64,000 nt of DNA from an uncultured Prevotella sp. (GCA_946403845.1 CAMJBL010000004.1:26170-90169), one strand, 5' to 3'. Positions 22,898 through 59,795 are shown, counted from the stretch's first letter. Numbers and translations: made by a program. Notes: a model not told the origin generated them from the sequence alone.

Positions 22898-23085
22898 GCG
22901 GTAACGCGATAACACGATAACATTAAGTATTTTGCATTCCACACCCTCTTATTGATTTATATATATTATTATATATATTATAATATATATAATAATATAT
23001 ATAAATATACTTTATCAAAATCATTCCCCACCATAATTACAAACTCATTCAACCCAATGTTATCGCGTTATCGCGTTATCGCCTT
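22898..23085. other. Putative replication origin: 3x GCGATAAC-type iterons / perfect 52-bp A/T palindrome / 3x inverted iterons
   Basis: 22898-22924 GCGGTAACGCGATAACACGATAACATT; palindrome 22955-23006; 23056-23085 AATGTTATCGCGTTATCGCGTTATCGCCTT. Confidence 0.75.
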
Positions 23086-23147
23086 GTGAAAAACATAAAA
23101 ATGGGTGGCTTTTACACCACCCAATTATTAATGATAATTTTTTAATT

Positions 23148-23627
23148 TTAGAAGTCAATGACAATACCTGCTGAGAAAATGTACCAATCCCAAGTCACAC
23201 CATCTTTTTTACCGGTCTGATAAACAGCCTCAGCTTCGAGTTTCAGTTTGTCTGTTATATAGTACTCACAACCAGGACCAAAGTTGAAAGCAAGTGCTGA
23301 ATCAGAATAGTCATTAACCTTCCAACCTAGAAGACCAATACCACCAATAGGATAAACTGTAAACTTGTCACCAATGTGGAAAAGATAGTTAAAATTGAGG
23401 TTGGCATTCCAGTAGGAGATGTCATCCTTCTTTAGAAAGTATTTAGCACTAGCTTCACCACGGAGGTTGTCGATAAACTCATACTTTAACTTTGCACCAA
23501 TACCCAATTGGCTGTAATGGTCGTCAGTACCATAGTTGAGGTTTGCACCAACCCCCATCTTACCAGCCTGAGCAAATACACCAATGCTCATCAGCATCAT
23601 AACTGCGATCAAAAATAGTTTTCTCAT
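23148..23627 (-). CDS. Outer membrane beta-barrel (porin family) protein
   Basis: Signal peptide, 8-strand pattern, terminal Phe. Confidence 0.85.
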   Translation of the reverse strand: MRKLFLIAVMMLMSIGVFAQAGKMGVGANLNYGTDDHYSQLGIGAKLKYEFIDNLRGEASAKYFLKKDDISYWNANLNFNYLFHIGDKFTVYPIGGIGLLGWKVNDYSDSALAFNFGPGCEYYITDKLKLEAEAVYQTGKKDGVTWDWYIFSAGIVIDF

Positions 23628-23988
23628 AATGAATTGTTTTAAATGTTAATAATAAAATTGGTTAAAAACTCTTTTCGGTTGCAAATATACAAATAATTAT
23701 AGATAATAACAAATTTTATTGCTTTTTTTCTAAAAAAAATACATTTTCTGTAATAAACGATTCTGAGTTCAGAAGATATATTTGATCAATTCTTATTTAT
23801 AAAATAAGAGTCTTATATCGCTAAAAAGAGTAAAATACATATAAATATATCAGTTTTTCAGGTTTTATTACTTCTGTTTCAATTATTTTTTGTACCTTTG
23901 TACCATATTCTATAGACAATGGGCTTATTTACCCTATAGATCTAGAGTATACTTACTAAAAATATAACGTCAAATTGACATTACTAAG

Positions 23989-24720
23989 ATGAAATATATT
24001 CTCGTTACGGGAGCTTCTAGAGGCATTGGAAGAGCCATCTGTTTAAGATTGGTCTCAATGAATATGCCTATAATAATTAATTTTAATAGCAACCTATCTG
24101 CTGCAGGAGAGACAAAATCTCTTATCGAGGATTTAGGTGGTAAGGCAGAATTGTTACCATTTGATGTTTCAAATAGGTTGGAAGTTGAAAAAGCCATTCA
24201 AAGCTGGGAAGATTCTCACCCAGATGATTATATCTCTATTTTGGTTAACAATGCTGGTATCAGGCGTGATAATATCATGTTTATGATGTCTGACGAAGAC
24301 TGGCATCAGGTTTTAGATACAACGCTTGATGGATTCTTCTACTTAACACGTTGCTTATTAAAACATATGATGCCCCGTAAGCGAGGGGGGAGAATTATAA
24401 ATATTGCATCGTTGTCAGGAGTTAAGGGCTTGCCAGGCCAGGTTAATTACAGTGCTGCAAAAGCTGCCTTAATTGGAGCGACAAAGGCATTGGCTCAAGA
24501 AGTTGCTCCTCGCAATATAACAGTAAATGCGATTGCACCTGGATTTATAGAAACAGATATGACAAAGGATCTGCCTGAGGATGATCTGAAGAAGTTGATT
24601 CCTGTTAGCAGATTCGGGAAACCAGAAGAAGTCGCAGCATTGGTTGCTTTCTTAGCTTCTGATGATGCGTCTTATATCACAGGTGAAGTTATAAATATCA
24701 ATGGAGGTCTTTATACATAA
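23989..24720 (+). CDS. fabG: 3-oxoacyl-ACP reductase (cluster ketoreductase)
   Basis: TGASRGIG, NNAG, YSAAK and PGFIETDM motifs. Confidence 0.92.
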   Translation: MKYILVTGASRGIGRAICLRLVSMNMPIIINFNSNLSAAGETKSLIEDLGGKAELLPFDVSNRLEVEKAIQSWEDSHPDDYISILVNNAGIRRDNIMFMMSDEDWHQVLDTTLDGFFYLTRCLLKHMMPRKRGGRIINIASLSGVKGLPGQVNYSAAKAALIGATKALAQEVAPRNITVNAIAPGFIETDMTKDLPEDDLKKLIPVSRFGKPEEVAALVAFLASDDASYITGEVININGGLYT

Positions 24721-24731
24721 TTTTTTTGTAT

Positions 24732-25616
24732 ATGAAGTATTTTTTGTCGTTTTATTTTTTTATAGTTAGCACATTATTATATGCTCAAAGCTCACAAGTA
24801 AAGGTGACATTGAAAAATGATGTTGTCGTTGTTGGAGAATTGGTGGAGTTTGACCCATTAGATCATGTGACTTTCAAAGTTGCCGGTAAAGAAACTACCG
24901 TTCCGATGACAAACGTGAAATCTGTTGAAACAGATGGGCTAGTGAATAATGGGAATATAGTTTCAGTAGAAACAAATAAAAATGTCTTCCCGATAGGTCA
25001 AGTTGGGTATTATGAGATTACAGACAAGAAGGATTATCCAGATAGTTATTCCTTTACTATTGATGGCCAAACAATAAAAATGAAATTAGTTAGAGGTGGT
25101 TCTTTTAATATGGGATACGATGGAGATGGGAGTCTTGGAATGAAAAGTGAGCCAATACATCAAGTAAACATATCTTCCTATTATATTAGTGAAACTTGTA
25201 TCAATGAAAAAACAGCGAATTCTCTTTTAGGAAAAGAAAAATTTAAAGATAGATATTATGCTGGTATATGGAAGAATGCAAATCTGGTTGTAGAAAAAAT
25301 TGCGAATCAAGTCCAAAAACCATATAGGCTATTAACTGAAGCAGAATGGGAATATGCTTCATTGATGCCATTTGCCGATGATATATTTGGCGTAGATAAA
25401 TATGCTGAATGGTGTTCTGATTTTTTTGCTGAATATACACCATCTATTCAAACAAATCCTAAAGGTCCTGTTACGGGAAATAAACATGTAGTTCGTTCAT
25501 ATAGGATGGGAAAAAACAAATGGGATAGGAGACTAAGCCATCTAAGTGGGTTCACTGGGGATAATTTAACACAAGCTTTTTTTAGAGTTGCAATTAGTGC
25601 AGATGCTATTAAATAG
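24732..25616 (+). CDS. Secreted FGE-sulfatase/SUMF1-domain protein
   Basis: MKLVRGGSFNMG...EPIHQVNISSYYI...YRLLTEAEWEYA...EWCSD. Confidence 0.75.
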   Translation: MKYFLSFYFFIVSTLLYAQSSQVKVTLKNDVVVVGELVEFDPLDHVTFKVAGKETTVPMTNVKSVETDGLVNNGNIVSVETNKNVFPIGQVGYYEITDKKDYPDSYSFTIDGQTIKMKLVRGGSFNMGYDGDGSLGMKSEPIHQVNISSYYISETCINEKTANSLLGKEKFKDRYYAGIWKNANLVVEKIANQVQKPYRLLTEAEWEYASLMPFADDIFGVDKYAEWCSDFFAEYTPSIQTNPKGPVTGNKHVVRSYRMGKNKWDRRLSHLSGFTGDNLTQAFFRVAISADAIK

Positions 25617-25622
25617 ATTATA

Positions 25623-26846
25623 ATGACAAAACGTGTAGTAATAACAGGTATAGGCATTTGGTCTTGCTTAGGAACAGATATAGAAACGGTTAAACAATCT
25701 CTATTTGAGGGTAAATCTGGTATTGGTTTACAACCAGAACGTCTTGAATATGGATATCGCTCAGGGCTTACAGGAATTGTAGAAACGCCAGTTATAACGA
25801 AACAAATGCTTGACAGGCATACCCGCGCAGGAATGTCGGAAGAAGCCCAGTATGCTTATATGGCCAGTCGTCAGGCGTTTGATCAGGCTCTAATTAGTGA
25901 CGAGTATCTTCGTGAAAACGAGGTCGGTTGTATCTTCGGAAATGACTCTTCTGCCAAGCCAGTCATAGAATCTTCGAAGATTATGGATGAAAAGCATGAC
26001 TCGGCTATGCTGGGTTATGGCCTGATCTTTCAGTCAATGAACTCTACGGTGAATATGAACCTCAGCACCATTTTCCATCTGCGAGGTGTAAATTTCACGA
26101 TCAGTGCAGCCTGCGCCAGTGGCAGCCATAGTATTGGCTTGGGTTATATGCTGATCAACCAGGGACTTCAGGATATGGTGCTCTGTGGAGGTGCTCAGGA
26201 GACAAATTACTACTCAATGGCATCGTTTGATGCGCTTGGAGCTTTTTCCGTAAGAATGGACGAACCAACAAAAGCAAGTCGCCCGTTCGACAAAGATCGT
26301 GATGGTTTGATCCCTAGTGGTGGTGCAGCAGCTCTGGTTCTGGAGGATTATGAGCATGCCATTGCCCGTGGCGCCAATATTCTTGCAGAAGTGGTTGGAT
26401 ATGGATTCTCCAGTAACGGAGGAGGAATTTCTGAACCAAGTGACAATGGGAGTGTGATAGCCATGACAAGGGCAATAAAGGATGCAGGCATTGAGCTTGA
26501 TGATATTGATTATATCAATGCTCATGCAACATCCACGCTTCAGGGTGATATGTATGAGGCGATTGCTCTTGATAGAATGTTCAGGGGCCAAAGGGCTTTA
26601 ATCAGTTCTACTAAATCTATGACAGGTCACGAATGTTGGATGGCTGGTGCCAGCGAGATAGTTTATAGCATTATTATGATGCAGAACAATTTCGTGGCTC
26701 CAAATATCAACTTCGAGAATCCTGACGAATATTCTGAGAAGTTAAATCTTACAGCAAAGACCATAGAGACTGAGGTCAATACCGTACTCAGTAATTCTTT
26801 CGGCTTTGGTGGTACAAATAGTGCATTGGTAATAAAACATATATAA
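25623..26846 (+). CDS. Beta-ketoacyl-ACP synthase (FabB/FabF-like KS)
   Basis: SAACAS Cys, NAHATST and TGHECW His residues, SNSFGFGG. Confidence 0.93.
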   Translation: MTKRVVITGIGIWSCLGTDIETVKQSLFEGKSGIGLQPERLEYGYRSGLTGIVETPVITKQMLDRHTRAGMSEEAQYAYMASRQAFDQALISDEYLRENEVGCIFGNDSSAKPVIESSKIMDEKHDSAMLGYGLIFQSMNSTVNMNLSTIFHLRGVNFTISAACASGSHSIGLGYMLINQGLQDMVLCGGAQETNYYSMASFDALGAFSVRMDEPTKASRPFDKDRDGLIPSGGAAALVLEDYEHAIARGANILAEVVGYGFSSNGGGISEPSDNGSVIAMTRAIKDAGIELDDIDYINAHATSTLQGDMYEAIALDRMFRGQRALISSTKSMTGHECWMAGASEIVYSIIMMQNNFVAPNINFENPDEYSEKLNLTAKTIETEVNTVLSNSFGFGGTNSALVIKHI

Positions 26847-26852
26847 GAAAAT

Positions 26853-27401
26853 ATGAGAACGACAACGCTACTAATTCTTTTCCTATTTGCTGCTCTTTAT
26901 ACAACAGCTCAGAGTTTAGATAGAGATATCAATAATCTTGATGGATCAAGAATTCTGGTGACATCGGAAGAAGAATTTTATGATGACGAAACTGTTGGAA
27001 TGACCTATTTAATATCTTCAAATAAAAGGGATACTATAAGAATCATTAATATTACACTAGAAGACTGGGGAAAGATGGAAAAAGGTCGTTCGTTTTTTTT
27101 AAAGTTCAAGGATGGTAGCATCATGGAACTGAAAAACGAGATAGACCAAATAGCCCATCCTGTTTCTGGACATTTTGCAATGTTTGGACCAGCAATGTGC
27201 CTTCAGCCCCAATTCGTGGTAACTAATGAACAATTGGAACAGATAATCTCTAAAGAAGTTATAAAACTCCGTTTTGAACAAGGAGATGATTTGTTGGATA
27301 GAAAGATAAAGAAAAATATTATTTCACGTATAATTAAAAATTGTGTAGAAATACTGGAAGACTCGTCCAGTAAGCAAATTGATAAACTTAAAGGATTTTA
27401 A
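26853..27401 (+). CDS. Secreted hypothetical protein
   Basis: Signal peptide; tight operon spacing. Confidence 0.7.
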   Translation: MRTTTLLILFLFAALYTTAQSLDRDINNLDGSRILVTSEEEFYDDETVGMTYLISSNKRDTIRIINITLEDWGKMEKGRSFFLKFKDGSIMELKNEIDQIAHPVSGHFAMFGPAMCLQPQFVVTNEQLEQIISKEVIKLRFEQGDDLLDRKIKKNIISRIIKNCVEILEDSSSKQIDKLKGF

Positions 27402-27403
27402 TT

Positions 27404-27919
27404 ATGAATTTCAAACGTTTTATTACTTTATCGCTAATGCTGAGCTTCTTGATGGTGGTTCAAGCACAAGTTGTTACAAAGAACTCTCTATCTGTATTAA
27501 AGCCAGGTTCAAAGATCGGATTTGTCTGCGACTTCTCCGAAGCAGTTATCATGGGAATGGACGAAGAAGCTTTTAGTAAATATGAGGAAGACTGGACAAC
27601 GGACAAGCCAACTATAGTGGCAAACTTTATGAATGGCATTAATAATAGACTTGATGACATATTGGTCTTTGGTCAGCTCAAAGACACTCAATACACTTTA
27701 AAAATCTCAGTCAAGCTTGTCAACACAAAAGGATATATGCTCTGTGATGCAGTAATTGTTGATAATGCCGGAAAATCTATTTTTGAAGCCAAACAGGTAA
27801 ATGGTGGAAAGGAACCCCCATTCTTACCAGGAACAAAACTTGCCAAGATGAAGGCTTGGGCTTTGCTAACAGGCCGTGCATTAGGCGGTATTATTAAATC
27901 TGAGTATTTAAATCAATAA
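27404..27919 (+). CDS. Secreted hypothetical protein
   Basis: Signal peptide ending VQA; resembles the next ORF. Confidence 0.72.
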   Translation: MNFKRFITLSLMLSFLMVVQAQVVTKNSLSVLKPGSKIGFVCDFSEAVIMGMDEEAFSKYEEDWTTDKPTIVANFMNGINNRLDDILVFGQLKDTQYTLKISVKLVNTKGYMLCDAVIVDNAGKSIFEAKQVNGGKEPPFLPGTKLAKMKAWALLTGRALGGIIKSEYLNQ

Positions 27920-27935
27920 CTAAAATAAGAAGATT

Positions 27936-28457
27936 ATGAAAAAGTATTTGCTATTATTGTTGGTGATTGTTTTGACCAGTGTAAATTGCATGGCTGGTGG
28001 TGTTAAAGTAAAGGAGGGGAAGGCCTCATTTCTTAAAGAAAACGCAAGTGCCATAGTTGAGTTTGATTTTTCTAAAACAACCTGGGAAGAAGATGAAGAT
28101 TTTAAGACATGGTGTGGCGATCAATATGAAAAGAGAAAGGCTGTGATGCAAAATGCCTTTGTTACGTCTTTTAATGAGAATTCAAAAGGACTCAAAATTA
28201 ATAGTGGAGCTAAAGATGCGAAGTATAAGATTGTTGTAGAAGTAAAAGATTTAGAGCGCCATCAATCTTTTACAGGCATGTGGGGACAAGGTAAAATTAG
28301 TACAACCGGATATATTAAAGTTTTTGAATTATCATCTAATCAAATAATATGTGATATATATATTGATGGATATGGTTCAGGAAAGGATTTTGATATTACT
28401 GATGGTATGGAGAAATGCTATAAAGCTTTAGCCAAGGAAGTCACAAAAGTGAAATAA
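27936..28457 (+). CDS. Secreted hypothetical protein
   Basis: Signal peptide; alpha/beta pattern similar to 27404..27919. Confidence 0.72.
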   Translation: MKKYLLLLLVIVLTSVNCMAGGVKVKEGKASFLKENASAIVEFDFSKTTWEEDEDFKTWCGDQYEKRKAVMQNAFVTSFNENSKGLKINSGAKDAKYKIVVEVKDLERHQSFTGMWGQGKISTTGYIKVFELSSNQIICDIYIDGYGSGKDFDITDGMEKCYKALAKEVTKVK

Positions 28458-28472
28458 TCTTCTTTTTATTCA

Positions 28473-29588
28473 ATGCAATTGTTTCCTGAATTACAAAAGA
28501 AATATACAAAAGATTCTCTGTCAGCCCGAGAAGCTCAAAGGCTGGCAGAGTTCATTGCGTGGGGGCCAGTTGTTTTTCAGGCCTCGCGTATAATGGTCAA
28601 ATGGGGTATCCTTGATTTGATCCGCAATTCCAAGAATGGTTTGACTCGTGAGGAGATATGTAAGGAAACGGGGAAGTCTGACTATGCAATAAAATGTTTA
28701 TTAGAAGCATCCTTGTGTATAGGAATAATCCTTGTTGACTTAGCAACGAATCGTTTTTCTTTGTCAAAGACAGGGTGGTTCTTGCTTAATGATCCTGCCA
28801 CTCGAGTTAATATCGACTTTAATCATGACGTGAATTATGAAGGTTGGTTTAAGCTTGAAGAGTCCCTTTTAAATGGAAAACCAGAAGGCCTGAAGCATTT
28901 CGGACCATGGCCTACCGTTTATGAAGGCCTTTCAAGTCTTCCAGACAAGGTTCAAAAGAGCTGGTTCGGATTTGACCATTTCTATAGTGACTCTTCTTTC
29001 CCAGAGGCTTTGAAGATTATTTTTGACGAGCATCATGTGCAATCATTATATGATGTTGGAGGGAATACGGGAAAGTGGGCATTACAATGTGTTGGCTATA
29101 ACAAGGCAGCAGATGTGACTATTTTGGATTTGCCTCAACAGATTGCAATGATGCAAATGAATGTGAATGGTAAAGAGGGAGCAGAACGTATACATGGATA
29201 TGGTATTAATTTACTTGATTCAAATGCGCAATTCCCTAAGCGTGCTGGTGGTCTTGATGCAATTTGGATGAGTCAGTTCCTGGATTGTTTCAGCATGGAT
29301 GAAATCATCAGCATCTTGAAACGAGCTAAAGAAGCAATGACTCCACAAACAAGGATTTACATCATGGAGACATTGTGGGATAGGCAAAAGTATGAGCCCG
29401 CAGCATTCTGTCTGACAATGACCAGTTTGTATTTTACTGCTATTGCAAATGGTAATTCTAAGATGTACAATACTGAAGATATGCAGCAATGTATAGACAG
29501 GTCAGGCTTGGAAATAGAACAGATCCATGACCATTTAGGACAAGGTCACTCAATAATTGTATGTAAACTCAAACAAACAAATATTTAA
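28473..29588 (+). CDS. SAM-dependent methyltransferase (Methyltransf_2 type) of aryl polyene/flexirubin clusters
   Basis: YDVGGNTG, LDLP and WMSQFLDCF motifs; N-terminal winged-helix dimerisation region. Confidence 0.88.
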   Translation: MQLFPELQKKYTKDSLSAREAQRLAEFIAWGPVVFQASRIMVKWGILDLIRNSKNGLTREEICKETGKSDYAIKCLLEASLCIGIILVDLATNRFSLSKTGWFLLNDPATRVNIDFNHDVNYEGWFKLEESLLNGKPEGLKHFGPWPTVYEGLSSLPDKVQKSWFGFDHFYSDSSFPEALKIIFDEHHVQSLYDVGGNTGKWALQCVGYNKAADVTILDLPQQIAMMQMNVNGKEGAERIHGYGINLLDSNAQFPKRAGGLDAIWMSQFLDCFSMDEIISILKRAKEAMTPQTRIYIMETLWDRQKYEPAAFCLTMTSLYFTAIANGNSKMYNTEDMQQCIDRSGLEIEQIHDHLGQGHSIIVCKLKQTNI

Positions 29589-29592
29589 TAAA

Positions 29593-29835
29593 ATGACAAG
29601 AACAGAAATTGAAGAGAAAGTAAAAGCATTCCTCATTGATGATCTCGAAATTGATGAGGATAAGATTTTTGATGATGCGAAGTTGAAGGAGGATATGGGA
29701 ATTGATAGCCTAGACTTCGTAGACATTGTTGTAATTGTAGAAAAGAACTTTGGCTTTAAGATCAAACCTGAAGAAATGGCAGGTGTAACGACTCTCAGCC
29801 AGTTCTGCGACTATATCGAGAGTAAGGTAGGGTAG
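29593..29835 (+). CDS. Acyl carrier protein
   Basis: DMGIDSLDFVD phosphopantetheine motif; acidic, 80 aa. Confidence 0.93.
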   Translation: MTRTEIEEKVKAFLIDDLEIDEDKIFDDAKLKEDMGIDSLDFVDIVVIVEKNFGFKIKPEEMAGVTTLSQFCDYIESKVG

Positions 29836-29840
29836 GAAAA

Positions 29841-30719
29841 GTGGCTGAAAGAAAGTGGGAAGGCACGACATATGGTAACAGCCTGATGCATAAATGGCTA
29901 ATTTCGCTGTTACGTGTTATAGATATCAGAATTATCTATATCTTTACCTATGTGTTTGTCATTCCACCATGCCTGTTCCGCCCTGGCTTTAAATATATTT
30001 ATCGCTATTTTCGTGAACGCTGGTGTTTTGGTCCATTAAAATCATTCTTTAAGACCTATCAGAATCACTGTTTGTTCAGCCAAGTTGTGATCGACAGGTT
30101 CGCAATGTATGCTGGAAAGCATTTTGATGCTGACATAGATGGCTATGAGTTCTTTCAGCAGTTGGAAAGCGAGCCAGATGCTTTCATCCAATTGAGTTCC
30201 CATATTGGCAACTACGAGATGGCTGGTTATACGTTAGTATCTACCAAGAAGCCATTTAATGCGCTGGTATATTGGGGTGAGAAACAATCTGTCATGGAGA
30301 ATCGTGCAAACATGTTTTCGGATAAGAACATTCGTATGATATCCATTAAGGAAGACATGAGTCATCTGTTCCTCATAGACAATGCGCTTCAAAAAGGCGA
30401 GATTGTCAGTATGCCTGCTGATCGGATCTTTGGATCGAAAAAGAGTGTGAACGAGCGCCTGTTAGGTGCAAACGTAAAATTGCCTTTAGGACCATTTAGT
30501 GTGGCTACTATGCGAGGACTGAATGTCCTGGCGGTAAACGTAATGAAAAGCTCAACAAAGGGGTATACAATTTATGTAAAACCTCTTAGTTACGATAAAC
30601 AGGCCCCTCGAAATATGCAGATAGAACAGTTGGCCCATAGTTATGTGACTGAATTGGAGCGCATCTTAAAATTGTATCCTACACAATGGTATAACTATTA
30701 TGATTTCTGGAATGTATGA
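29841..30719 (+). CDS. LpxL-family (lipid A lauroyl transferase-like) acyltransferase
   Basis: SHIGNYE, MPADR and PTQWYNYYDFW motifs. Confidence 0.88.
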   Translation: MAERKWEGTTYGNSLMHKWLISLLRVIDIRIIYIFTYVFVIPPCLFRPGFKYIYRYFRERWCFGPLKSFFKTYQNHCLFSQVVIDRFAMYAGKHFDADIDGYEFFQQLESEPDAFIQLSSHIGNYEMAGYTLVSTKKPFNALVYWGEKQSVMENRANMFSDKNIRMISIKEDMSHLFLIDNALQKGEIVSMPADRIFGSKKSVNERLLGANVKLPLGPFSVATMRGLNVLAVNVMKSSTKGYTIYVKPLSYDKQAPRNMQIEQLAHSYVTELERILKLYPTQWYNYYDFWNV

Positions 30720-31171
30720 CAAAAGACGCACAAAACTTCTCATCATCGTTTCTTAAGCAGATAGATATTCATAGCCTTCTGCCCCAGCAAGAGCCTTTCG
30801 TTATGATTGGTAGTCTTGTTTATTTCGATGAACGACGTACAATTACAGAAACGACCATTAAAGAAGATATTATTTTTGTTGATGACGGAATGTTCAGCGC
30901 ATCGGGGCTTATTGAGAATATAGCCCAGACTTGTGCTGCCCGCATAGGATTTGTCAATAAGTACATCCTTAAGAAGGGTATTCAGATTGGCTTTATTGGA
31001 GCTATCCGGAACTTGGAACTCTTTCGCCTGCCCAATGTGGGTGAGACGATAACCACTACAATGGACGTTGTCGAAGAGGTTTTTGGTATGACGCTTGCAC
31101 AGGCGAGGGTCAGTTGTGGTGAAGAGACATTGGTCTCGACAGATATTAAAATTGCATTAAAAGAAGGCTAG
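30716..31171 (+). CDS. Hotdog-fold 3-hydroxyacyl-ACP dehydratase (ApeP-like)
   Basis: LLPQQEPFVMI, LIENIAQTCAA and IGFIGAI motifs. Confidence 0.85.
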   Translation: MTKDAQNFSSSFLKQIDIHSLLPQQEPFVMIGSLVYFDERRTITETTIKEDIIFVDDGMFSASGLIENIAQTCAARIGFVNKYILKKGIQIGFIGAIRNLELFRLPNVGETITTTMDVVEEVFGMTLAQARVSCGEETLVSTDIKIALKEG

Positions 31172-31173
31172 GT

Positions 31174-50157: not shown

Positions 50158-50162
50158 AATAA

Positions 50163-50190: not shown

Positions 50191-50406
50191 AAAAGTGATA
50201 AAACACTTTTCGCCTCAATGAGGCACCATTTTTAAACCCAAAAACGTCATCTCGACGGAGTTTTTTAATTCATGATGCAAATATAGGTGTTTTTTTTAAT
50301 ACAACCAAATATTTAGGCATTTTTTATTTGTAAGCAATTGATAACTACAGGTATTAATACAAATATACTATTGCATTGTCAGCTACAATAACATAACCTT
50401 AAAAAA

Positions 50407-51425: not shown

Positions 51426-52463
51426 ATGGCAAAAAAGATCAAAGCTCAGAAAAGTAGCAAGAAGAAGGTTAATGAAGATGTTCATGAACCGGTCACAAAT
51501 CGTGACCAGTCCGAAGAGGTAGTCGCAAAACGCGACCACCTTGAAAAGGGCGAAATATCGCTTACCCAACATGATATTGAGAGCCTAATTCGCACTATCC
51601 GAGGGCAGAAGGTGATGGTGGATTTCGATTTGGCTATGCTCTATGGTGTGAAGAACAAACGTCTTAACGAGCAGGTAAAACGTAATATAAAACGTTTCCC
51701 AGATGACTTTATGTTCCAACTTACAAAAGAGGAATGGAATACTTTGCGGTCGCAAATTGCGACCACAAAATCATCTGTAAATCAGGCTGATAACATCTTG
51801 AAGTCGCAAATTGCGACATCAAGTTGGGGTGGAACAAGAAAACTGCCCTATGCATTTACAAGAAACGGAATCGGAATGCTGAGTAGTGTGCTTGGGTCTG
51901 ACACAGCAGTAGAAATGAACATCCGCATCATGCGTGTTTTTACTGCGGCTCACCAGATAATGGAAAACAACGCTATCTTATTTAAAAAGGTACTTCATTT
52001 AGAACAGCACCAGATAGAAACGGATGAAAAGATTGATCATCTAATTGCAAAGATGGATGAGAATTCGCCCAAGTTTCTGCCTGAGCATATATTTCAGACG
52101 GGTTGTGTGTGGGATGCCTGGTCGTATGTGTCGGATCTGGTGAGGAAAGCTGATCAGCGAATTATATTGATAGACAACTTCGTGGATGATCGTGTACTAT
52201 CATTGTTTTCTAAACGAAGAGATGGCGTAAATGCTACCATACATACGCGCTATACTGAACAGTTCCTGACGGACTTGGAGAAGCACAACGAGCAGTATCC
52301 GGCTATTGAATTCATACAGTTGCGTCATAAGAATCATGACCGTTTTCTCATTATCGACGATACCGCCTATTTGCTTGGTGCCAGTTTGAAGGATATGGGT
52401 GTTGGCTTATGTGCCATTACTCCCCTCAGTACTTCACCAGAAACAATACTTGGGATGCTATAA
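51426..52463 (+). CDS. ORF6N-domain DNA-binding protein with C-terminal PLD-like domain
   Basis: IRGQKVMVDFDLAMLYGV...LNEQVKRNIKRFPDDFMFQL; PYAFT; IILIDNF; HDRFLIIDD. Confidence 0.88.
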   Translation: MAKKIKAQKSSKKKVNEDVHEPVTNRDQSEEVVAKRDHLEKGEISLTQHDIESLIRTIRGQKVMVDFDLAMLYGVKNKRLNEQVKRNIKRFPDDFMFQLTKEEWNTLRSQIATTKSSVNQADNILKSQIATSSWGGTRKLPYAFTRNGIGMLSSVLGSDTAVEMNIRIMRVFTAAHQIMENNAILFKKVLHLEQHQIETDEKIDHLIAKMDENSPKFLPEHIFQTGCVWDAWSYVSDLVRKADQRIILIDNFVDDRVLSLFSKRRDGVNATIHTRYTEQFLTDLEKHNEQYPAIEFIQLRHKNHDRFLIIDDTAYLLGASLKDMGVGLCAITPLSTSPETILGML

Positions 52464-52745
52464 CACATTCAGGTATAGCTACGCGACCGCCTGCTGCATT
52501 TGGCTTTTTGCTAATGTGGCAGTTTTTTTTGTTAGAAATTTGGAAATATAAAATAAAATTACTATCTTTGTCGTCGATTACTAAAATTAATCAACTAAAA
52601 TTATGAATATTATTAGACTAAAACATCGGATTGGACTTAGTCCATAAATATATCAAACATACCAAATGTTAGAGATTTTTCAATTATAGCGCAGGGCATG
52701 GATTTGCTTTGTGTAGGGAGAATAATAATTAAAAACTAAAGAATT

Positions 52746-53456
52746 ATGATCAACTTAAAAACCAATTCAAAAGAGTTATGGCGAGTGCTCCCAGAAGAGC
52801 ACGACAAAGCCTTGTACTGGCTGAAGAAGCATTTCGGGGGGGAGGATCGCTATGAGATGATGCGCGACGACCTGCTGATCAGATGCAGGCAGGCCCGATG
52901 GCCAATCGCATCGGAGGTGGTGGATTACACCTCGAAGGAGGGAAACCGATGGGTTTGTTTTGAACAGGCCACGTATTACCCTGAAAGACATGGATCGCAT
53001 TGCATGCCTTATGCATTCTGCTATTATGAGACAGCGGTGTCGTTAGGGGTGTTTTCGCTTGGCTACCATTCTGAAAACGGCAGGGATGAGGTGGGCTCCA
53101 TCTTTATCTACACGCCTCACTTCTTTCAGCGATACTGCGAAAGGATGCGCGTTAAGGGCTCTCCAAAGGGGATACTCATGAGCTTTATGAAAATGTCGCC
53201 TCTGATTACTACTGCCCTTCTGCCTAAGGATGAGGACGGACTGCAGAAGGTGATTGTGAGATTTCCCGGATGTGTAGGGCATGGTATTGCACGAAGGGAT
53301 CATGAGCGGGTGTTTGAGGTGCGCACCTTGTTGACAGATGGTCAGCTGAGTGGCAAGCAGTCGCAGGATACCCAGGAGCTGCGTGAATATGGAGATTATT
53401 TGAAAGTCGTTAGAGGCTACACTGTATTTAATAACTGTAAAACTATAGAATTATGA
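52746..53456 (+). CDS. Hypothetical protein
   Basis: 236-aa ORF with YTPHFFQRYCER motif; ATGA-coupled to the next gene. Confidence 0.7.
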   Translation: MINLKTNSKELWRVLPEEHDKALYWLKKHFGGEDRYEMMRDDLLIRCRQARWPIASEVVDYTSKEGNRWVCFEQATYYPERHGSHCMPYAFCYYETAVSLGVFSLGYHSENGRDEVGSIFIYTPHFFQRYCERMRVKGSPKGILMSFMKMSPLITTALLPKDEDGLQKVIVRFPGCVGHGIARRDHERVFEVRTLLTDGQLSGKQSQDTQELREYGDYLKVVRGYTVFNNCKTIEL

Positions 53457-54490
53457 ACCAAGACCAATTTTTTGATGATCCATTAGCGAAGGGCTCGCAG
53501 GCAGGGAAGCTCATCACAAAGCTGCAAAACGAAAACAAATGGCTGCGAGCAACATTGAAAAGTATCACATCTAATACCTTGATGCTGGATCCCACAACAG
53601 AAAACCTGTGGGAAGAGTTGATAAAGAAATATAAGGATGATGCTGTGCTTGAAGAATATAGTGACTGGAAAGAGGAAATAGACGGTTATAAGTTTGAGGA
53701 TCTGAAAGCCAGACAGAATCAAGAAGTTTACAAACTGCTTAAATCGAGATTTTTCCGATATAGTAAAACACCAACGGGCGCTGAGGTGAAGCGTAGGAAG
53801 TTGGTCATTTCTGAAGATGATTTGGAAGTGGGGTCGGAGATTCCCCAGTTTCTGGCTGCTGAATGCTCGAAGTTTGAGCGCTTTTACGAGTTGCGTGGGG
53901 AGCATATCTTTATTCTAAACTACGTGAAGCTGGAACACTATATCAGAAAGCATTTCCATAAACTGAAACCTCAGGATTTACAGATTATTGCTGCCTTCGA
54001 CCAGTGTATGGATCTGATACATGATGACATGGCGAAATTAAGGACTAGCCTTGCCGTTCACCTGAAATGCTATGAAAACAATCTGATCATGCAAAAGAAG
54101 ATGGTTTGTCTGGAGGTGCTAAGCGTCTGCAAACAATATATGAATAATAAGGTACGCGAGAAGTTTATTGATGACTATGTGGATATGCTGCTCTTTGATG
54201 AGGACATGAGAGAGGAGGCGAGGAATAAGCTGAAAGGACAGTCGATGAAGAAGTATCTCTGTGAGATGGTGGCTGCGCTCAGATGGTTTGATATCTTCCG
54301 TCATGATGTGACGCCTCAGATGCTGGCGCATGTAATCAGCAAGAAACTGGAGGGTGTCGCTTCGAAAACTCTACAAACCTATATCGAGAAATTCTATAAT
54401 GCCCGAGAGGGGCGATTATATGTTTGGACGAAAGCTAATATTGACCAATTGAAGGTGGCACCATATAATCCTTTTGCTCAGATTATTTAA
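53453..54490 (+). CDS. Hypothetical helical protein, possible regulator
   Basis: 345-aa ORF; C-terminal helix-turn-helix-like segment; followed by a TCCGAC inverted repeat. Confidence 0.65.
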   Translation: MNQDQFFDDPLAKGSQAGKLITKLQNENKWLRATLKSITSNTLMLDPTTENLWEELIKKYKDDAVLEEYSDWKEEIDGYKFEDLKARQNQEVYKLLKSRFFRYSKTPTGAEVKRRKLVISEDDLEVGSEIPQFLAAECSKFERFYELRGEHIFILNYVKLEHYIRKHFHKLKPQDLQIIAAFDQCMDLIHDDMAKLRTSLAVHLKCYENNLIMQKKMVCLEVLSVCKQYMNNKVREKFIDDYVDMLLFDEDMREEARNKLKGQSMKKYLCEMVAALRWFDIFRHDVTPQMLAHVISKKLEGVASKTLQTYIEKFYNAREGRLYVWTKANIDQLKVAPYNPFAQII

Positions 54491-54722
54491 TCCGACAATT
54501 TGTTTTTTATACTGTTCCGACTGACTGAATTGTCGGAGCAAATTATATCTCTCTGAAAATCAACCCTTTCAGAGAGATTTTTTTTTATGATTTTTCTTCC
54601 TTGCTTTCGGAATTAATCGGTTCTACCTTTGCAACCGCAATTAAGATTTAGACATAGGAACATATGAACAAATATTTAATTCAGACATAAAAACATAAGA
54701 ACAAAATTAAAATTTAAAAGGT

Positions 54723-55346
54723 ATGGAAGAAGAAAAATGTGAAGTGCTGACCATTCCGGAAAGCATGAAGAAAGAAGAACTTGTTGATGAGGTGTATCGC
54801 CTGCGAAGGATGGGCATCGCCAAAGATGAGAAGGAAAAGGGGTTGATCATTGAGGTGGACTATCTGAGGAATGAACTGAAAGAATCGCGCAGGCAGATCG
54901 TGGAAATGAAGTACCATCTGGAGGAAGTGCAGCAGGAGTATGGTCGGGAGCGTGAGGTGGCCAGCAACTGTGTTGGGATCTTGAAGGAATTCCTCTTCAA
55001 ATGGCTCACACCTGACAATCAAGATCTCGTGAAACGTATGTTGAGGTTTTATGATGATTACGATAAGGCGCGATTGATCTATGCTATCCTGAAATTCCTG
55101 CTCTTTGGTGAGATGTCGAACTTTCACAAGGAGGTGCAGAAATGGCATTTCAACATCATCTGCGATAAGATCGACGAGGATGCGATTCATCTGCCTTCGC
55201 ATTCGCTGATGGTGAAATTGATGGAAAAATATGGACTCTTTGATAAAATTGATAATGAAGTATTAACTAACGAAAATGAGAACGATGGAAACAGTGAAAG
55301 TAACAGTGGTGAGAAAGAACAAACGACTGGTGAGGGTGGTTGTTGA
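54723..55346 (+). CDS. Hypothetical coiled-coil protein with phage replication-initiator-like (DUF6291-like) segment
   Basis: DKARLIYAILKFLLFGE resembles that family; first gene after the TACCTTTG promoter at about 54624. Confidence 0.55.
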   Translation: MEEEKCEVLTIPESMKKEELVDEVYRLRRMGIAKDEKEKGLIIEVDYLRNELKESRRQIVEMKYHLEEVQQEYGREREVASNCVGILKEFLFKWLTPDNQDLVKRMLRFYDDYDKARLIYAILKFLLFGEMSNFHKEVQKWHFNIICDKIDEDAIHLPSHSLMVKLMEKYGLFDKIDNEVLTNENENDGNSESNSGEKEQTTGEGGC

Positions 55347-55599
55347 GGATTTGCAGGACGAGTATGGCGTGGACATCGAAGCCCTGGTGATCATGGAGTG
55401 TATCAGGCCCCACGTGAGTACGACGCTCTTCGATATGTTGATGATGCAGTTGCCAGCCTTTACAAGCGACATGCAGGTGGAGGTGGCAGACAATCTGCTG
55501 GACTTCGTGAACGAGGGCGTGCTGAAATACACGGGCTGCACCAGCGCGGACATGGTGCTCGATGCCTGCTATAAATGGATTGAAGATGAAAATAGTTGA
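55276..55599 (+). CDS. Hypothetical protein
   Basis: ORF in operon context with host-like codon use; start may be 55285. Confidence 0.6.
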   Translation: MRTMETVKVTVVRKNKRLVRVVVEDLQDEYGVDIEALVIMECIRPHVSTTLFDMLMMQLPAFTSDMQVEVADNLLDFVNEGVLKYTGCTSADMVLDACYKWIEDENS

Positions 55600-55644
55600 A
55601 GAATTAAAGAATTGAAGAATTAAAGAATTGAAAAATTGAAGTTT

Positions 55645-56589
55645 ATGGAAGGAAGACCATTGAATTTTGCTGAGGCACCAGTACAGGTGCTGACGCTCGA
55701 TGAGCTCGAAAAGAGCTATCATGAGAACCTGCCAACGGGCGATCCCGTAGGTGGAATCTATCACTTCGCCCTGATCCAACAGGTGCTGGAGCTATTTGAA
55801 AAGCGGGGACTGAAGCCTGTGGTGCAGGAGATTTTCGCTGCTGCAAATAGGGATTCGAAACGCCCGGGTGTGACGCTGCTGCCTCAGCTGGAGGAGAAGT
55901 TTGGAGAAAGGGCGATTGAAGCGCATCTGCTTCGAAGGGTGTATGCGAACATCGAGATCCGTTCGGACGAAACTGATGATGTCGTGACTTGCCTCGCAGT
56001 AGCTTATCATCAGAAGGGTATTCAACTGGGAATTGGTCCGATGGTGAAGGTGTGTCATAACCAGACGATTCTCGGGGCGCAGGATGTGGTAAGTAACTAT
56101 ACTTGCTTCGGAGGGCGCAAGGACACAAAGGGGTCAGGCACCTCTGTGTCGTCTGCGACAACACATAAATGCCAGACCCCATTGCGTCCCTCTCTGGAGA
56201 TGGTGCTGGCAAGGGCTGAACAGTGGGCGGAGGATTATGAACCTTATCAGAAGATTCGTGCAGAAAGGGTTTCGGCCATGAAGTCTGTGCAGATGGATCG
56301 CGAGGGGATGCTGAGGCTGATTGGCGTGCTCGTTGAGAAAAGAATTCTGCATGATTCTGCAAATGAGGTGCTGCGTGTGGCGACCCCATATCCGCTGAAC
56401 TCGGGACAGATCAACGAGACGGCTGAGCAACTGATTGCGCTAATGCGCCACGATGAACCAATCACGTATTGGGATGCATACCAGCAGCTGAACACCGTGC
56501 TGAAACCCGGGCGCATGGATATCCCACAGGTGCTGCCACAGAGTCTGGCGCTCTATGAGGCTCTACAAGATCAGATAAACCAGGGCTAA
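55645..56589 (+). CDS. DUF932-like phage/plasmid protein with in-frame hairpin insertion
   Basis: IGPMVKVCHNQTIL resembles the DUF932 VCxN motif; TYWDAYQ C-terminal motif. Confidence 0.6.
   Translation: MEGRPLNFAEAPVQVLTLDELEKSYHENLPTGDPVGGIYHFALIQQVLELFEKRGLKPVVQEIFAAANRDSKRPGVTLLPQLEEKFGERAIEAHLLRRVYANIEIRSDETDDVVTCLAVAYHQKGIQLGIGPMVKVCHNQTILGAQDVVSNYTCFGGRKDTKGSGTSVSSATTHKCQTPLRPSLEMVLARAEQWAEDYEPYQKIRAERVSAMKSVQMDREGMLRLIGVLVEKRILHDSANEVLRVATPYPLNSGQINETAEQLIALMRHDEPITYWDAYQQLNTVLKPGRMDIPQVLPQSLALYEALQDQINQG
56121..56189. repeat. 69-bp REP-like hairpin inserted in frame
   Basis: Arms 56121-56153 and 56157-56189 are inverted (26/33 match); core GGGGTCAGGCACC. Confidence 0.78.
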
Positions 56590-56614
56590 TGAATCATTTA
56601 AAAAAGGAGGAAAA

Positions 56615-56938
56615 ATGAAGAAAGAAGTATCAATTTTGAATGCGCTCGCAGTCATGGCTAGACTGGAGCAGGGTAAGAGTGTGGAAGGTAGCTTCTTCAA
56701 GGACAAGGAATCGGGTGTGCTGACGTTCAGGCCCTACAACCGATTGTCGCGAGAACCGGGGTATGTTCCGCCCACGGTGACGCTTTATGAAACGGCCAAT
56801 GGGGCGCTGCGCCAGACAGCCAAGCGAAACAAGATCGTGGTGAGTGTGAAACGAAGTCTTGGTAAGCTTCGTGGGGCCACAGAACTCCTGTCGCAGGCGA
56901 GGGAGCTAACCGATTACCTGAAAACGTTGAAGAATTGA
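56615..56938 (+). CDS. Hypothetical basic protein
   Basis: AGGAGG before the ATG; operon context. Confidence 0.7.
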   Translation: MKKEVSILNALAVMARLEQGKSVEGSFFKDKESGVLTFRPYNRLSREPGYVPPTVTLYETANGALRQTAKRNKIVVSVKRSLGKLRGATELLSQARELTDYLKTLKN

Positions 56939-57004: not shown

Positions 57005-57292
57005 ATGGAAGCATTAGTAACAATTGTAGAGGTGGGCGCATACTCTGAGCGCCAGTATCAGAAACAGGACGGAACACCTGAATATTTTAAGAGTAGAGGA
57101 TTCGTTCTGAAGCGGGGCGGGGACTCCTTCTATGGAGAGCTCACTGGTGATGGAGCCAGCAAGAATCGCGACACCCAGTATGACCAGCAGATTCCATACA
57201 TCGTGAAGGGATTCTGGAAGGTGCGCACATGGGGCGATAATCATGACCGCCACGAGAACGTCTTTTATATCACAGATCTTCAAACGCTCTAG
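57005..57292 (+). CDS. Small OB-fold, SSB-like (DUF3127-like) protein
   Basis: All-beta pattern ERQYQKQDG...FVLK...KVRTW...ENVFYITDL; directly upstream of the primase-helicase. Confidence 0.6.
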   Translation: MEALVTIVEVGAYSERQYQKQDGTPEYFKSRGFVLKRGGDSFYGELTGDGASKNRDTQYDQQIPYIVKGFWKVRTWGDNHDRHENVFYITDLQTL

Positions 57293-57295
57293 CCG

Positions 57296-59767
57296 ATGGG
57301 ATTTAGCTATCAGAAGAATTTCTTTAATCCTACGTTGCCCGTTGACGAAGCGCAGTTTTATGCGCTCGTCAGGGCGACGAAGTGGGGCGAGACAATTGAT
57401 GAGTTTCGTAAGACAGGTGACCAGAAACTGAAACGTGGACTGCCTGCGTTCATCTTCCAGGCGACGTTCGATGAGACCGAATCTGCCAAGGGAAAAACCG
57501 GTCGCTGGCGCAAACAGGCTGCCACACGACTGACGGGATTGGTTGTGATGGACATAGATCACGTTGAAAGTGAAGAGTTAAGAGTGAAGAGTGAAGAATA
57601 TGCTTCCGCCGACTTTCCTCGGAAAGCACAGGAACTGGGCATCTTACTCATCTATATCACGCCTTCTGGACATGGCTTGAAGATTGTGTTCAAAGCTCGT
57701 CCGGAATGGGGTAATCTCATCGACAACCAGCACGCCATGGCGAAGGTGCTTGGTGTGGAGGTTGACGAAAGTTGCAAGGATGCATCGCGTATGTCGTTCA
57801 TCTGCAAGGAATCGGATATATTATTTATTGATAAGGAATTATTTACTTATGAAAACAAGGAATTTGCTGAGAAATATGAGCCTGAGTATCGGGCTAATAA
57901 TAGTGCTGCTACTAAGACTGCTGCTGTGGCCAGTCAGAAAACTGAGTCAGGGTCTGGCAATGTCGGCCAAGTGGATGATCAGCCGGTGGAACTAAAGTGG
58001 CGTGGGTATGATCTGCAAGGTATTATTGATGCTCGCTATGGCGACAAACTGCCATGCAAGGCAGACTCCAACAGACATAATGAGAGCCTTAAACTCGCCA
58101 CAGACCTGCTGCTCATGCTCGACGGTGACAGAAAGCTGGTGGAGCGTATCGTGGAAGCTCAGCCATGGGTGCAGGAAATCATCGCAGAGCGCGATGAGAA
58201 CGTGGCCCAGACGGTTGCCTCGGCAGCGGAATGCGTGGCGCAGAAAGAGAAGAAATATGCGAGTTCGCTACCATCCAAGGCCATGCTCGAAGCGGTTTTG
58301 AAGGCGACGGGACATTCTTACCAAGAGATTGTAAAATCGAGGAGTGAGGAGTGTGGAGTGAGGAGTGAGAATACTATTAATTCCCAGCTAGTGTTGTGGG
58401 GAGAAGAGATAGAGGCGCTGAGTGAGGATTTCCCGCTGTTGAAGGATATCTGCAAGGGATTGAAGAAGAACCAGTATCCTGCAGCGATGTTCGTAGGCGG
58501 TGGATTGTTGATGACGCTGATGACAAGATGTACTTATAGATTCTACCACCGCCCCGAGGAACTTCGCAGGTTGAATAATTCGACGCTGATTATCGGTGAT
58601 CCTGCCAGCGGAAAGAGCTTTGCGACGCGATTGTTCAAACTCCTCGCAGCGCCCATCGTCGCAGCAGACAAGGTTGGCAAGGATGCCATCAACGCCTATC
58701 GTGAGCAGATGCGCACCAAGGGCGCGAATAAGGAGAAACCCAAGAAGCCTAAGGTGATTGTCCGCGTGCATCCGGCCCGAACCTCGAATGCGCAGTTCAT
58801 TCAGGACATGGTGAACAGTGTGGAGGAGGTGGATGGCGAGAAGATGCAGTTGCACATGTTGACGTTCGATACGGAGCTCGACAACACTGTGACCGTTCAG
58901 AAGGGTGGAAGCTGGATTGACAAGCAGTCGCTCGAACTGAAAGCGTTTCACAACGAGGAAGATGGTCAGGCGTATTCAAACAACGACTCGATCCTGCAGG
59001 ACTTCTACGTCACCTGGAACTTCATCTATACGGGCACGCCCATTGCGCTGAAGAAGAAAGTAAATGAGCAGAATTTTGGAAGCGGCCTGGCCACGCGCCT
59101 CACCTGCATCCCGCTGCCTGCCACCAACTTCGAGATGCTAAGTCGTGAGAGTCATGTGGACTTTGAGAGCGATGGCCGTTTGAAGGCCTGGGCCTTTAAG
59201 TTGGATCGCACGAAGGGTCTGTTGAGTCTCGACAAGATTGTGGATGAACTCTATGACTGGACAGAGCGTCGTATGTTGGATGCTCAGGAGAACGAATCGA
59301 AGGCGGACGAGATGCTGCTGAAGCGTTGCGCCTATCATGGCTTGAATTTCTCGGCTCCGTTCATCGTGATGCGTCACTGGGATCAGCTGAAAAAGGATGG
59401 CGACTTCTGGTGCGGTGAGTTCGAGACGGATGATGTGGATTGGCGTTTGGCTGAACTGATAACCAATATCCAGTATGCCTGCCAGCGCCACTACTTCGGA
59501 GCCTTGGCTGAAACCTACTTCGACAACAAAGACCGTGATGCGGTTTCGAATGTGCAGCGGAAGTCGAAGACCGTTGAGGCCTTCCATCGGTTGCCTGAGG
59601 AATTCACCGTCAATGACATCATGCGCTGTTTCGAGCTGAGTATAGAATCTGCTAAAGTCAGAGTGGCGAGGTTGCAGAAAGATCATCTGGTCAAAAAGGT
59701 TGGTGATTTTAAAGAGAATGGCACGAAAAAAGCCAAGTATCAGAAAATTCCCAACATCATGATTTAA
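57296..59767 (+). CDS. BT4734/BF3469-like (VirE N-terminal primase-like) protein with P-loop helicase domain
   Basis: KLKRGLPAF, LVVMDIDH, ITPSGHGLK and DESCKDASRMSF; Walker A GDPASGKS; GLATR; C-terminal winged-helix-like end. Confidence 0.85.
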   Translation: MGFSYQKNFFNPTLPVDEAQFYALVRATKWGETIDEFRKTGDQKLKRGLPAFIFQATFDETESAKGKTGRWRKQAATRLTGLVVMDIDHVESEELRVKSEEYASADFPRKAQELGILLIYITPSGHGLKIVFKARPEWGNLIDNQHAMAKVLGVEVDESCKDASRMSFICKESDILFIDKELFTYENKEFAEKYEPEYRANNSAATKTAAVASQKTESGSGNVGQVDDQPVELKWRGYDLQGIIDARYGDKLPCKADSNRHNESLKLATDLLLMLDGDRKLVERIVEAQPWVQEIIAERDENVAQTVASAAECVAQKEKKYASSLPSKAMLEAVLKATGHSYQEIVKSRSEECGVRSENTINSQLVLWGEEIEALSEDFPLLKDICKGLKKNQYPAAMFVGGGLLMTLMTRCTYRFYHRPEELRRLNNSTLIIGDPASGKSFATRLFKLLAAPIVAADKVGKDAINAYREQMRTKGANKEKPKKPKVIVRVHPARTSNAQFIQDMVNSVEEVDGEKMQLHMLTFDTELDNTVTVQKGGSWIDKQSLELKAFHNEEDGQAYSNNDSILQDFYVTWNFIYTGTPIALKKKVNEQNFGSGLATRLTCIPLPATNFEMLSRESHVDFESDGRLKAWAFKLDRTKGLLSLDKIVDELYDWTERRMLDAQENESKADEMLLKRCAYHGLNFSAPFIVMRHWDQLKKDGDFWCGEFETDDVDWRLAELITNIQYACQRHYFGALAETYFDNKDRDAVSNVQRKSKTVEAFHRLPEEFTVNDIMRCFELSIESAKVRVARLQKDHLVKKVGDFKENGTKKAKYQKIPNIMI

Positions 59768-59768
59768 G

Positions 59769-59795
59769 GCGGTAACGCGATAACACGATAACATT
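59769..59795 (+). repeat. Exact 27-bp copy of the left iteron block at 22898-22924
   Basis: GCGGTAACGCGATAACACGATAACATT, beginning 2 bp after the primase-helicase stop codon. Confidence 0.95.

Follow-up and report, generated by a model that had tools for sequence, protein, structure and literature searches.

Iteron arrays, origin-like site and Rep in the window

The window analysed here is a stretch of 64,000 nucleotides from an uncultured Prevotella sp. (GCA_946403845.1 CAMJBL010000004.1:26170-90169), likely a rumen Prevotella. The window carries an island in which an origin-like site, a long cargo region, the gene for a primase-helicase (Rep) and a further iteron array follow one another; as a unit, the island appears to extend from a smalltalk-like gene to a peptidase M15 gene, about 21.1-60.4 kb (Table 1). 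A 27-mer built of three 8-bp units was present in two exact plus-strand copies separated by 36,871 bp, which confirmed the direct pair reported in a preliminary description of the window; no match arose in any of 100 shuffled sequences. A third copy lay inverted at 23056-23082, with two mismatches. The left and the inverted copies enclose a perfect AT palindrome of 52 bp, the arrangement of inverted iterons around an AT-rich core that is typical of origins like those of Staphylococcus aureus pathogenicity islands (SaPIs). The cargo begins just inside the left copy, where the GC content dropped from 55% on the left flank to 39% (genome, 50%). At the other end, a single base separates the Rep stop codon from the third array, and no terminator was found between the rep stop and the M15 start.

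The window's own assembly (G000, 2.99 Mb, 80% complete; C plus a number denotes a contig) held two exact copies of the 27-mer, three at up to two mismatches and four at up to five. One more window-type array, within four mismatches, was located on contig C56. None of 200 other genomes of the genus contained a degenerate version of the 27-mer. With these counts, a high-copy genome-wide repeat, a possibility that the preliminary description had itself raised, was ruled out. A separate class of short 7-8-bp repeat runs was seen at 21101-21140, 22365-22404, 55584-55670, 56915-57016, 58337-58375, 60006-60044 and 61202-61264, in part within the rep and M15 coding sequences. These runs are distinct from the iterons; similar ones are scattered genome-wide, and they inflate summed depth when reads are mapped.

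Rep showed the domain and the motifs of a BT4734-like (VirE_N) archaeo-eukaryotic primase (AEP). The PF08800 domain scored 51.1 bits (cut-off 22.4), and the motifs D86xD88, GLK (127-129) and VD (156-157) agreed with the BT4734-family definition in the available text of PMC11724360, namely DxD as motif I, a lysine-containing motif II (GLK) and hD as motif III. D86, D88, G127 and D157 were invariant in 65 aligned relatives, which had been picked as full-length. The Walker A motif of an MCM-like AAA+ domain was found at 434-441. In the AlphaFold model (mean predicted local distance difference test score 84, predicted TM-score 0.52), the best Foldseek matches were MCM helicases (E 2.5e-5) with low TM-scores, and the last 74 residues were predicted to adopt a winged-helix fold, for which library matches were all weaker than E 0.001. 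The DUF3987 match was weak (E 0.012), and sequence searches against the PDB gave nothing useful. Together, the model and the motifs suggested that Rep is a BT4734-type AEP primase fused to an MCM-like AAA+ ATPase with a C-terminal winged helix. According to the same paper's available text, the BT4734-family primase of the AgaPP system is a proven primase-polymerase, and its DUF3987 partner is a helicase (PMC11724360). Rep relatives at E <1e-20 occurred in 27 of 120 family genomes, in 9 of 27 genera. In two other metagenome runs, contigs agreed with the window as far as 59598, where the winged helix starts, and diverged from there on.

Table 1. Features of the island and its surroundings, in window coordinates
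Feature	Position	Strand	Basis
Smalltalk-like membrane peptide, 36 aa, near probable left unit end	21136..21246	-	NF033879 21 bits, below 24.7 cut-off
HU-like DNA-binding protein (HU-HIG), left arm common to paralogous islands	21392..22273	-	PF18291 E 3.6e-9
Four 10-bp-spaced repeats between HU and DUF4248	22440..22479	+	sequence
DUF4248 small protein	22579..22791	+	PF14053 E 7.5e-11
Left iteron array of origin-like site (3 x 8 bp)	22898..22924	+	repeat search
Perfect 52-bp AT palindrome, likely unwinding core	22955..23006		sequence
Right (inverted) iteron array of origin-like site	23056..23089	-	repeat search
Cargo, 39% GC	23148..51132		profile search; DNA relatives in 41/300 family genomes
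Accessory ORFs: ORF6N antirepressor-like gene, then ORFs without family	51426..56938	+	profile search, paralog comparison
95-aa protein, DUF3127-like lead	57005..57292	+	Atlas feature match 0.94 to DUF3127 cluster, low recognition
Rep, 823 aa: primase, ATPase and winged helix	57296..59767	+	profile search, predicted fold
Third iteron array, between rep stop and M15 start	59769..59795	+	sequence
Peptidase M15 (endolysin-like), right arm common to paralogous islands	59817..60335	+	PF08291; phrog_894 E 3e-26
Bidirectional terminator-like hairpin, probable right unit end	60363..60398		sequence

The island family and its array code

Related loci (L plus a number) in G000, in the other genomes compared (G001-G005) and in further relatives shared a common layout of HU, DUF4248, origin, cargo, rep, array and wall hydrolase, with 4-37 kb from the origin to the rep stop. 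The rep C-terminus was reached in 75 of 80 related loci, and most of these had a short tandem array directly after the stop, the unit of which differed from locus to locus. A wall hydrolase followed rep in 62 of 70 loci (M15 in 51, amidase in 11). G000 alone contained 22 AT cores. Matching inverted arms flanked 17 of the 21 that could be tested, compared with 27 of 2000 AT-rich control windows and 6 of 420 mismatched arm pairs, and most of the 17 origin-like sites had an 8-bp repeat of their own. Nine rep matches were found in G000, mostly partial or on short contigs. The paralog on C20 had the same layout with another iteron, and spanned 14.5 kb from origin to rep stop.

The array after rep corresponded to the origin at a distance. 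Among 31 rep/origin pairs on one contig, the array ranked its own origin first in 24; in two more the own origin came second, behind an origin of similar repeat type. The concern in the preliminary description that homologous loci might lack a downstream repeat matching a distant origin was not borne out. None of 100,000 permutations reached the observed mean, a certainty that is overstated by the kinship among pairs. Origin and array remained matched across many specificity types and in paralogs only about 20% identical. The iterons also co-varied with the C-terminus of the helicase, as had been predicted: same-iteron pairs were recognised by C-terminal identity with an area under the curve (AUC) of 0.98, versus 0.80 for the helicase core. 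The nearest neighbour shared the iteron in 31 of 40 cases by C-terminus and in 15 of 40 by core, and 46 of the 54 pairs with C-terminal identity above 80% had the same iteron. These statistics drew on a set of 70 sequences, 64 of which passed the array threshold; 12 further sequences had been left out (10 without the anchor motif, 2 without a core), and in L010 and L055 at least the script chose the wrong repeat. These comparisons of sequence showed that the array follows the winged helix and that the arrays form a specificity code. As described in the available part of PMC9371898, SaPI Rep binds inverted iterons around an AT core through its winged helix.

Variants of the layout were seen at several places. 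At about 260-780 of the window (G000:C4:24800-26950), 22 kb to the left, lies a second, emptied island, with smalltalk, HU, a complete origin of another iteron type and only a fragment of M15. Two mini islands, G000:C50:17560-18494 and L098, consist of an origin followed by only the winged-helix end of rep, an array and M15; the array of L098 does not match its origin. At G000:C56:15440-15560 (L233), arrays of the C20, window and L026 types stand in series before a probable insertion-sequence end at the contig end, and neither rep nor an AT core adjoins them. Judged from the sequence, this locus could be what a series of islands left behind, or a binding site with several specificities. The origin arms of L128 (about 7390-7480) and L123 (about 7480-7560) likewise carried two different arrays one after the other, as if an old specificity had been left beside a new one. 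In G000:C57:10685-12290, L099 and L153, an origin-like site is directly followed by a gene that encodes the helicase alone and lacks the primase; counterparts exist in G001, G003, G004 and G005, and these genes are possibly domesticated. L118 and L119 (G003:C18) have near-identical origins in the same orientation, 48 kb apart, with a distant rep relative between them. A compact module at G000:C9:25168-28731 carries a VapE-like rep, inverted iterons around a GC-containing palindrome at its stop, and then a small DUF4248-like gene, HU and amidase (families read by eye). An origin directly behind rep was likewise found in distant VapE-type modules (2 of 20 stretches). In other genera, the DUF4248/HU/amidase genes adjoin DUF3987, VapE or DnaB helicases. 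Near these cassettes, the origin detector, which recovers 13 of 20 known origins, responded in the same 2 of 20 stretches.

The cargo of the window contains three ketosynthases, an acyl carrier protein (ACP), a dehydratase, a reductase, an FlxJ methyltransferase (594 bits, cut-off 560), acyltransferases, LolA and an MMPL exporter, which make up the flexirubin/aryl-polyene set, and also a CoA ligase, a DUF5686 protein and two outer-membrane barrels. It is predicted to be a type II fatty-acid/polyketide cluster of aryl-polyene/flexirubin type, a correction to its reading as a glycan locus. Complete flexirubin pathways include ammonia-lyase and dialkylresorcinol genes; neither family was found among the scanned open reading frames (ORFs), several of which are without an assigned family. 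A relative of the cluster lies at G081:C7:61390-73744, about 6 kb downstream of a rep gene and on the opposite side compared with the window. The expected variety of cargo between the same arms was observed. The C20 island carries a type I restriction system, L096:10742-15863 has Cas9 with a partial Cas1 between origin and rep, and among 93 ORFs taken from 20 stretches of cargo in other islands were type III and ISP restriction genes, Cas9, Cas1, MoxR, WYL, UmuDC, leucine-rich repeats, a TonB receptor, antirepressors and phage lysozymes. No integrase gene was found among these 93 ORFs.

Recombinases were likewise missing around the islands. As the preliminary description had stated for the unit and its borders, no recombinase, transposase, relaxase, terminase or capsid family was recognised, here in 46 ORFs at 16.4-63.5 kb. 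The genome-wide search covered tyrosine recombinases and resolvases. It found four tyrosine recombinases in G000 and four in G001, none beside an island; there was no tyrosine integrase on any G000 contig with island modules or within 90 kb of any origin or rep found in G001, and no resolvase match in either genome.

Several smaller genes accompany the unit. The smalltalk-like peptide ends in a lipobox-like stretch ahead of a cysteine (by eye) and could be a small lipoprotein working with the wall hydrolase. The four spaced repeats before DUF4248 are a possible site for this protein; in the C20 paralog, DUF4248 is 50% identical and other repeats occupy the same position. Several of the accessory ORFs recur upstream of Rep in other islands, and profile scans assigned no family to the ORF at 55636-56589. 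The 95-aa DUF3127-like protein, 78-96% identical ahead of three paralogous rep genes, is possibly a single-strand DNA-binding protein.

Mobility, mechanism and rival explanations

Homology among the G000 paralogs ended at about 21095-21140 on the left and at 60335-60344 on the right. Between the window and C20, tracts of 100% identity were found in HU (21501-22200 of the HU arm), the helicase core and M15 (96% amino acid identity overall), while DUF4248 with the origin, and the winged helix with the array, had diverged. Identical tracts beside diverged ones point to recent recombination among the copies. From one genome to another, the same host flank adjoined islands that differed in iteron type and in orientation. 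One internal deletion had an 11-bp junction homology with one mismatch, a single case that ordinary slippage would fit too. An empty allele of the C20 site was represented by contigs in two runs of other studies, which skip 17,490 bases and join two host genes; the skip runs from left of smalltalk to right of M15, so that HU and M15 are gone too. No empty site for the window's own island was found in 40 relatives, nor in four runs (right end only). The flanks of L112 and those of L113 were not adjacent in the other four of G001-G005, and therefore the exact ends cannot be fixed. Terminal inverted repeats were considered and rejected: homologous terminators stand at both C20 ends, and the window ends do not share them. 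Transposon-type TG...CA ends were also rejected, as many arrays end in CATT and several do not, and no transposase was found.

We propose that the unit is a multi-copy, integrase-free replicon island of the chromosome, with arrays bound by Rep, copied in place, controlled by its third array and moved by way of its arms, and we give this reading a probability of about one half. Rep would likely bind the three matching arrays through its winged helix. As judged from SaPI Rep and MCM, two Rep hexamers may load themselves on the inverted arms and open the AT palindrome, from which two forks would set out. Without excision, induction would then lead to run-off amplification in place, as occurs for a chromosomal region of Bartonella (PMC2697382, from the part of the paper available). 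The unit resembles such a locus in that it combines a helicase and an origin without excision machinery. The weakest step concerns the third array, most likely a control site, which by analogy may titrate Rep or pair with the origin (handcuffing); extra iterons outside the origin have this role in Vibrio ori2, according to the available text of PMC6090056, and extra cognate iterons outside the origin are present here. The array may also block read-through into M15, a gating that is conceivable because no terminator separates the two genes. The island would likely move and swap by homologous or microhomology recombination through the conserved arms, and extra copies, perhaps with lysis by the wall hydrolase, could feed recombination into the arms or flanks of kin. 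Underneath this proposal are features seen directly in the aligned loci: the layout, the array code, the variety of cargo, the absence of integrase and the mosaic arms.

A number of observations weigh against the proposed replicon island. Array and winged helix travel together because the array adjoins the winged-helix codons, so linkage alone accounts for their pairing and only the match to the distant origin needs function. As the origin 4-37 kb away does match the array, linkage is insufficient as an explanation. Five of the 31 pairs were mismatched (two without array, one chimera, two helicase-only genes), and many origins had no rep nearby. The identities of HU and Rep were uncorrelated over 27 islands (rho -0.04; nearest neighbours agreed in 13 of 27), so that no overall co-descent was evident; from the sequences, the inner part seems able to be exchanged against the arms. 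The origins of L118, L128, L216 and L217 adjoin host flank without HU between, so the outer ends are not fixed. The empty-allele contigs of C20 are short, about 92% identical and have 17 other letters at the joint, which gives the extent of the skip only roughly, and to the left of the smalltalk terminator the filled site is longer by about 650 bases. Depth was 35-39 inside versus 39-44 outside the C20 island, and 39 at the window's end array versus 33-34 on its flank; these are contig means from one uninduced metagenome, which cannot show local gradients. No amplification was seen in this uninduced contig depth, and no transfer vehicle was identified.

The preliminary description had instead considered the direct repeats as possible attachment or termination sites. 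Recombination or template switching between left arm and end array would release a circle with rep directly before a complete origin, and HU-DUF4248-array-M15 would remain in place as a platform open to re-use. Opening a SaPI-type rep-ori circle at its left arm would give exactly this geometry, the direct pair in the window is identical while the inverted arm differs at two bases, and the uncoupling of HU and Rep would fit as well. One primase relative has been shown to join DNA ends in vitro at sites of microhomology, an activity that its helicase partner inhibits (PMC11724360, available text). However, the end array showed no preference for the direct arm: it was closer to the inverted arm in 14 of 29 cases and to the direct arm in 13, with two ties, all three arrays being about equally alike. 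In a family-wide draw (20 stretches fetched, 6 without origin), the end array was missing in 7 of the 14 elements with an upstream origin. A complete origin directly after rep was found in 0 of 73 loci, where a single AT-rich match lacked the second arm. The circle-junction pattern, which demanded one exact AT core and would miss many iteron types, gave five matches in a metagenome collection, all in AT-rich DNA and none with rep. The predicted scar, a single array followed by M15, occurred at 0 of 15 informative HU arms (19 regions in G001, G003, G004 and G005, of which 4 lay at a contig end, 13 had a complete origin and 2 were other module types), and the empty C20 allele retained neither HU nor M15. 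Emptied copies, at the window start and in L098, keep the entire origin with both arms. In the likely source run, a sheep gut metagenome, a 479-base contig spans the end array unbroken, at the depth given above; uninduced metagenome contigs drop rare variants, and inducible or rare circles would escape. Rep had no match in PLSDB (72,556 records, rumen plasmids probably under-represented) or INPHARED. One IMG/VR record, classed as provirus, has rep, array and M15 at its edge, and the origin pattern was not found in it. We therefore regard release of a circle at the repeats as unlikely. The replicon layout of the preliminary description holds, and its joined circle is geometrically possible, but excision at the repeats is not supported.

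Alternatively, the third array might act as a fork barrier, at which bound Rep stops the rightward fork, so that amplification is limited to the cargo and yields linear or tandem copies ending at the array. The array does stand at the far end of cargo and rep and matches the origin, and no AT core follows it. We consider this role improbable, given that the window has no matching array left of the origin, half of the family-wide sample has no array at all and the depth shows no step. The islands might also be remnants of a stranded satellite or small mobile element that lost its integrase, or borrows integrase or helper in trans, and now serve as hotspots of variable genes with a mostly silent replicon. 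Many orphan origins, truncated rep genes and chimeric minis, the phage-like antirepressor and lysozyme genes inside islands and the flat depth would agree with this, as would the integrase carried by AgaPP elements with the same enzyme types (PMC11724360, available text) and the label of putative phage given to a related amidase block in the accessible part of Xu et al. (PMC1892571). Such a decayed state is doubtful: Rep is intact, with the invariant catalytic residues described above in copies chosen as full-length, the matching of origin and array has been kept over many specificity types, and the cargo stretches contained no integrase. Very unlikely, in our view, is an on/off inversion switch, in which right arm and end array act as inverted repeats and a flip of cargo and rep brings the origin directly after rep. 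The right arm does match the end array into the flanks in several islands, including the stop-codon context, and distant relatives do have rep directly before an origin. The flipped state was met at none of the 73 loci, no strand-switch joint lay at the arrays among the joints listed (15 of 69 at C20), and there is no invertase near.

A wider version of the replicon-island reading is possible but tentative. The islands might represent a new class of mobile elements of rumen Prevotellaceae, inducible chromosomal replicons present in a dozen or more copies per genome, each with its own winged-helix/iteron code. They would amplify defence and surface cargo of up to 30 kb in place, set it free by means of their own wall hydrolase and insert again, by arm homology or by end joining through their own primase-polymerase, with no need for an integrase; the array linked to the winged helix would serve as a master copy that re-codes the distant origin upon a swap of specificity. 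If the proposed replicon-island model holds, it would explain the turnover of restriction systems, CRISPR-Cas9 and surface or pigment clusters at fixed hotspots without integrases in a dominant rumen lineage, whereas most island finders require integrases. It would give a role to the long-unexplained HU/DUF4248/smalltalk/amidase cassette of Bacteroidales, and reveal a bacterial family of MCM-like self-loading helicases with dozens of natural winged-helix/8-bp pairs. Such pairs would form a set for origin-recognition studies and for orthogonal replicons in Bacteroidota genetics.

Comparison with known systems

P1 incA and F incC are control iterons downstream of rep, and P1 incA is the closer parallel to the third array. 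SCCmec Cch, an MCM-like helicase that loads itself and has a winged helix, is likewise found on a chromosomal cassette whose cargo varies. SCC elements carry genes for serine recombinases, whereas the island genomes G000 and G001 gave no resolvase-domain match. The iteron replicons of the Vibrio ori2 type resemble the island in having cognate initiator sites outside the origin (PMC6090056, available text). In contrast to Rep, their initiators are proteins other than helicases, and they act on free plasmids or chromids; as noted, Rep had no match among plasmid records.

The run-off system of Bartonella is similar in that a helicase and an origin, both of phage descent and located on the chromosome, amplify a region of variable genes in place, without excising it; the accessible text describes a single conserved locus tied to a gene transfer agent (PMC2697382). 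The islands differ in having many specificity types per genome and no capsid genes found in them, and their amplification is only proposed. In 2007, Xu et al. described a multi-copy block of a T7 lysozyme and four hypothetical genes, a putative phage, at Bacteroides capsule loci (PMC1892571). Like the islands, it is present in several copies and places a wall hydrolase next to variable loci, and it probably corresponds to the DUF4248/HU/amidase cassette of other genera; the available part of the paper names no primase, helicase, origin or iterons. Unlike the islands, the cassette in other genera is compact and adjoins the helicases named above.

AgaPP/AgaPH have the same primase family with GLK in motif II, and defence genes as neighbours. 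In the accessible text they are two separate genes on tRNA-integrated elements with integrase and Argonaute, and no origin or iterons are described there (PMC11724360); here the gene is fused, no integrase was found, and an origin with iterons is present. The part of PMC5862659 available only classifies the domains. A description of the origin-cargo-rep-array layout was not found in the literature, with subscription papers and supplements largely outside coverage.

The closest likeness is to the pri-rep-ori module of SaPIs and other phage-inducible chromosomal islands (PICIs), which, according to the available text of PMC9371898, likewise has a fused primase-helicase with a C-terminal winged helix, and short inverted iterons around an AT core, placed right behind the rep stop. 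In the islands, by contrast, rep has just one array behind it, and the full origin is located upstream, on the far side of the cargo; no integrase, att core, terminal att direct repeats or packaging-interference gene was found, and the window ORFs scanned contained no capsid or terminase families of the kind used in PICI packaging. The chromosome carries many origins of differing specificity, and the primase is of BT4734 type. By its sequence, the module would work like SaPI pri-rep-ori with enzymes of the AgaPP/AgaPH type, and it falls outside the PICIs on integrase, att sites and origin position. Overall, we regard the unit as a real, apparently undescribed variant of a satellite-type replicon; new with this island are a biosynthetic cargo of 28 kb and tests that address the attachment-site idea directly.

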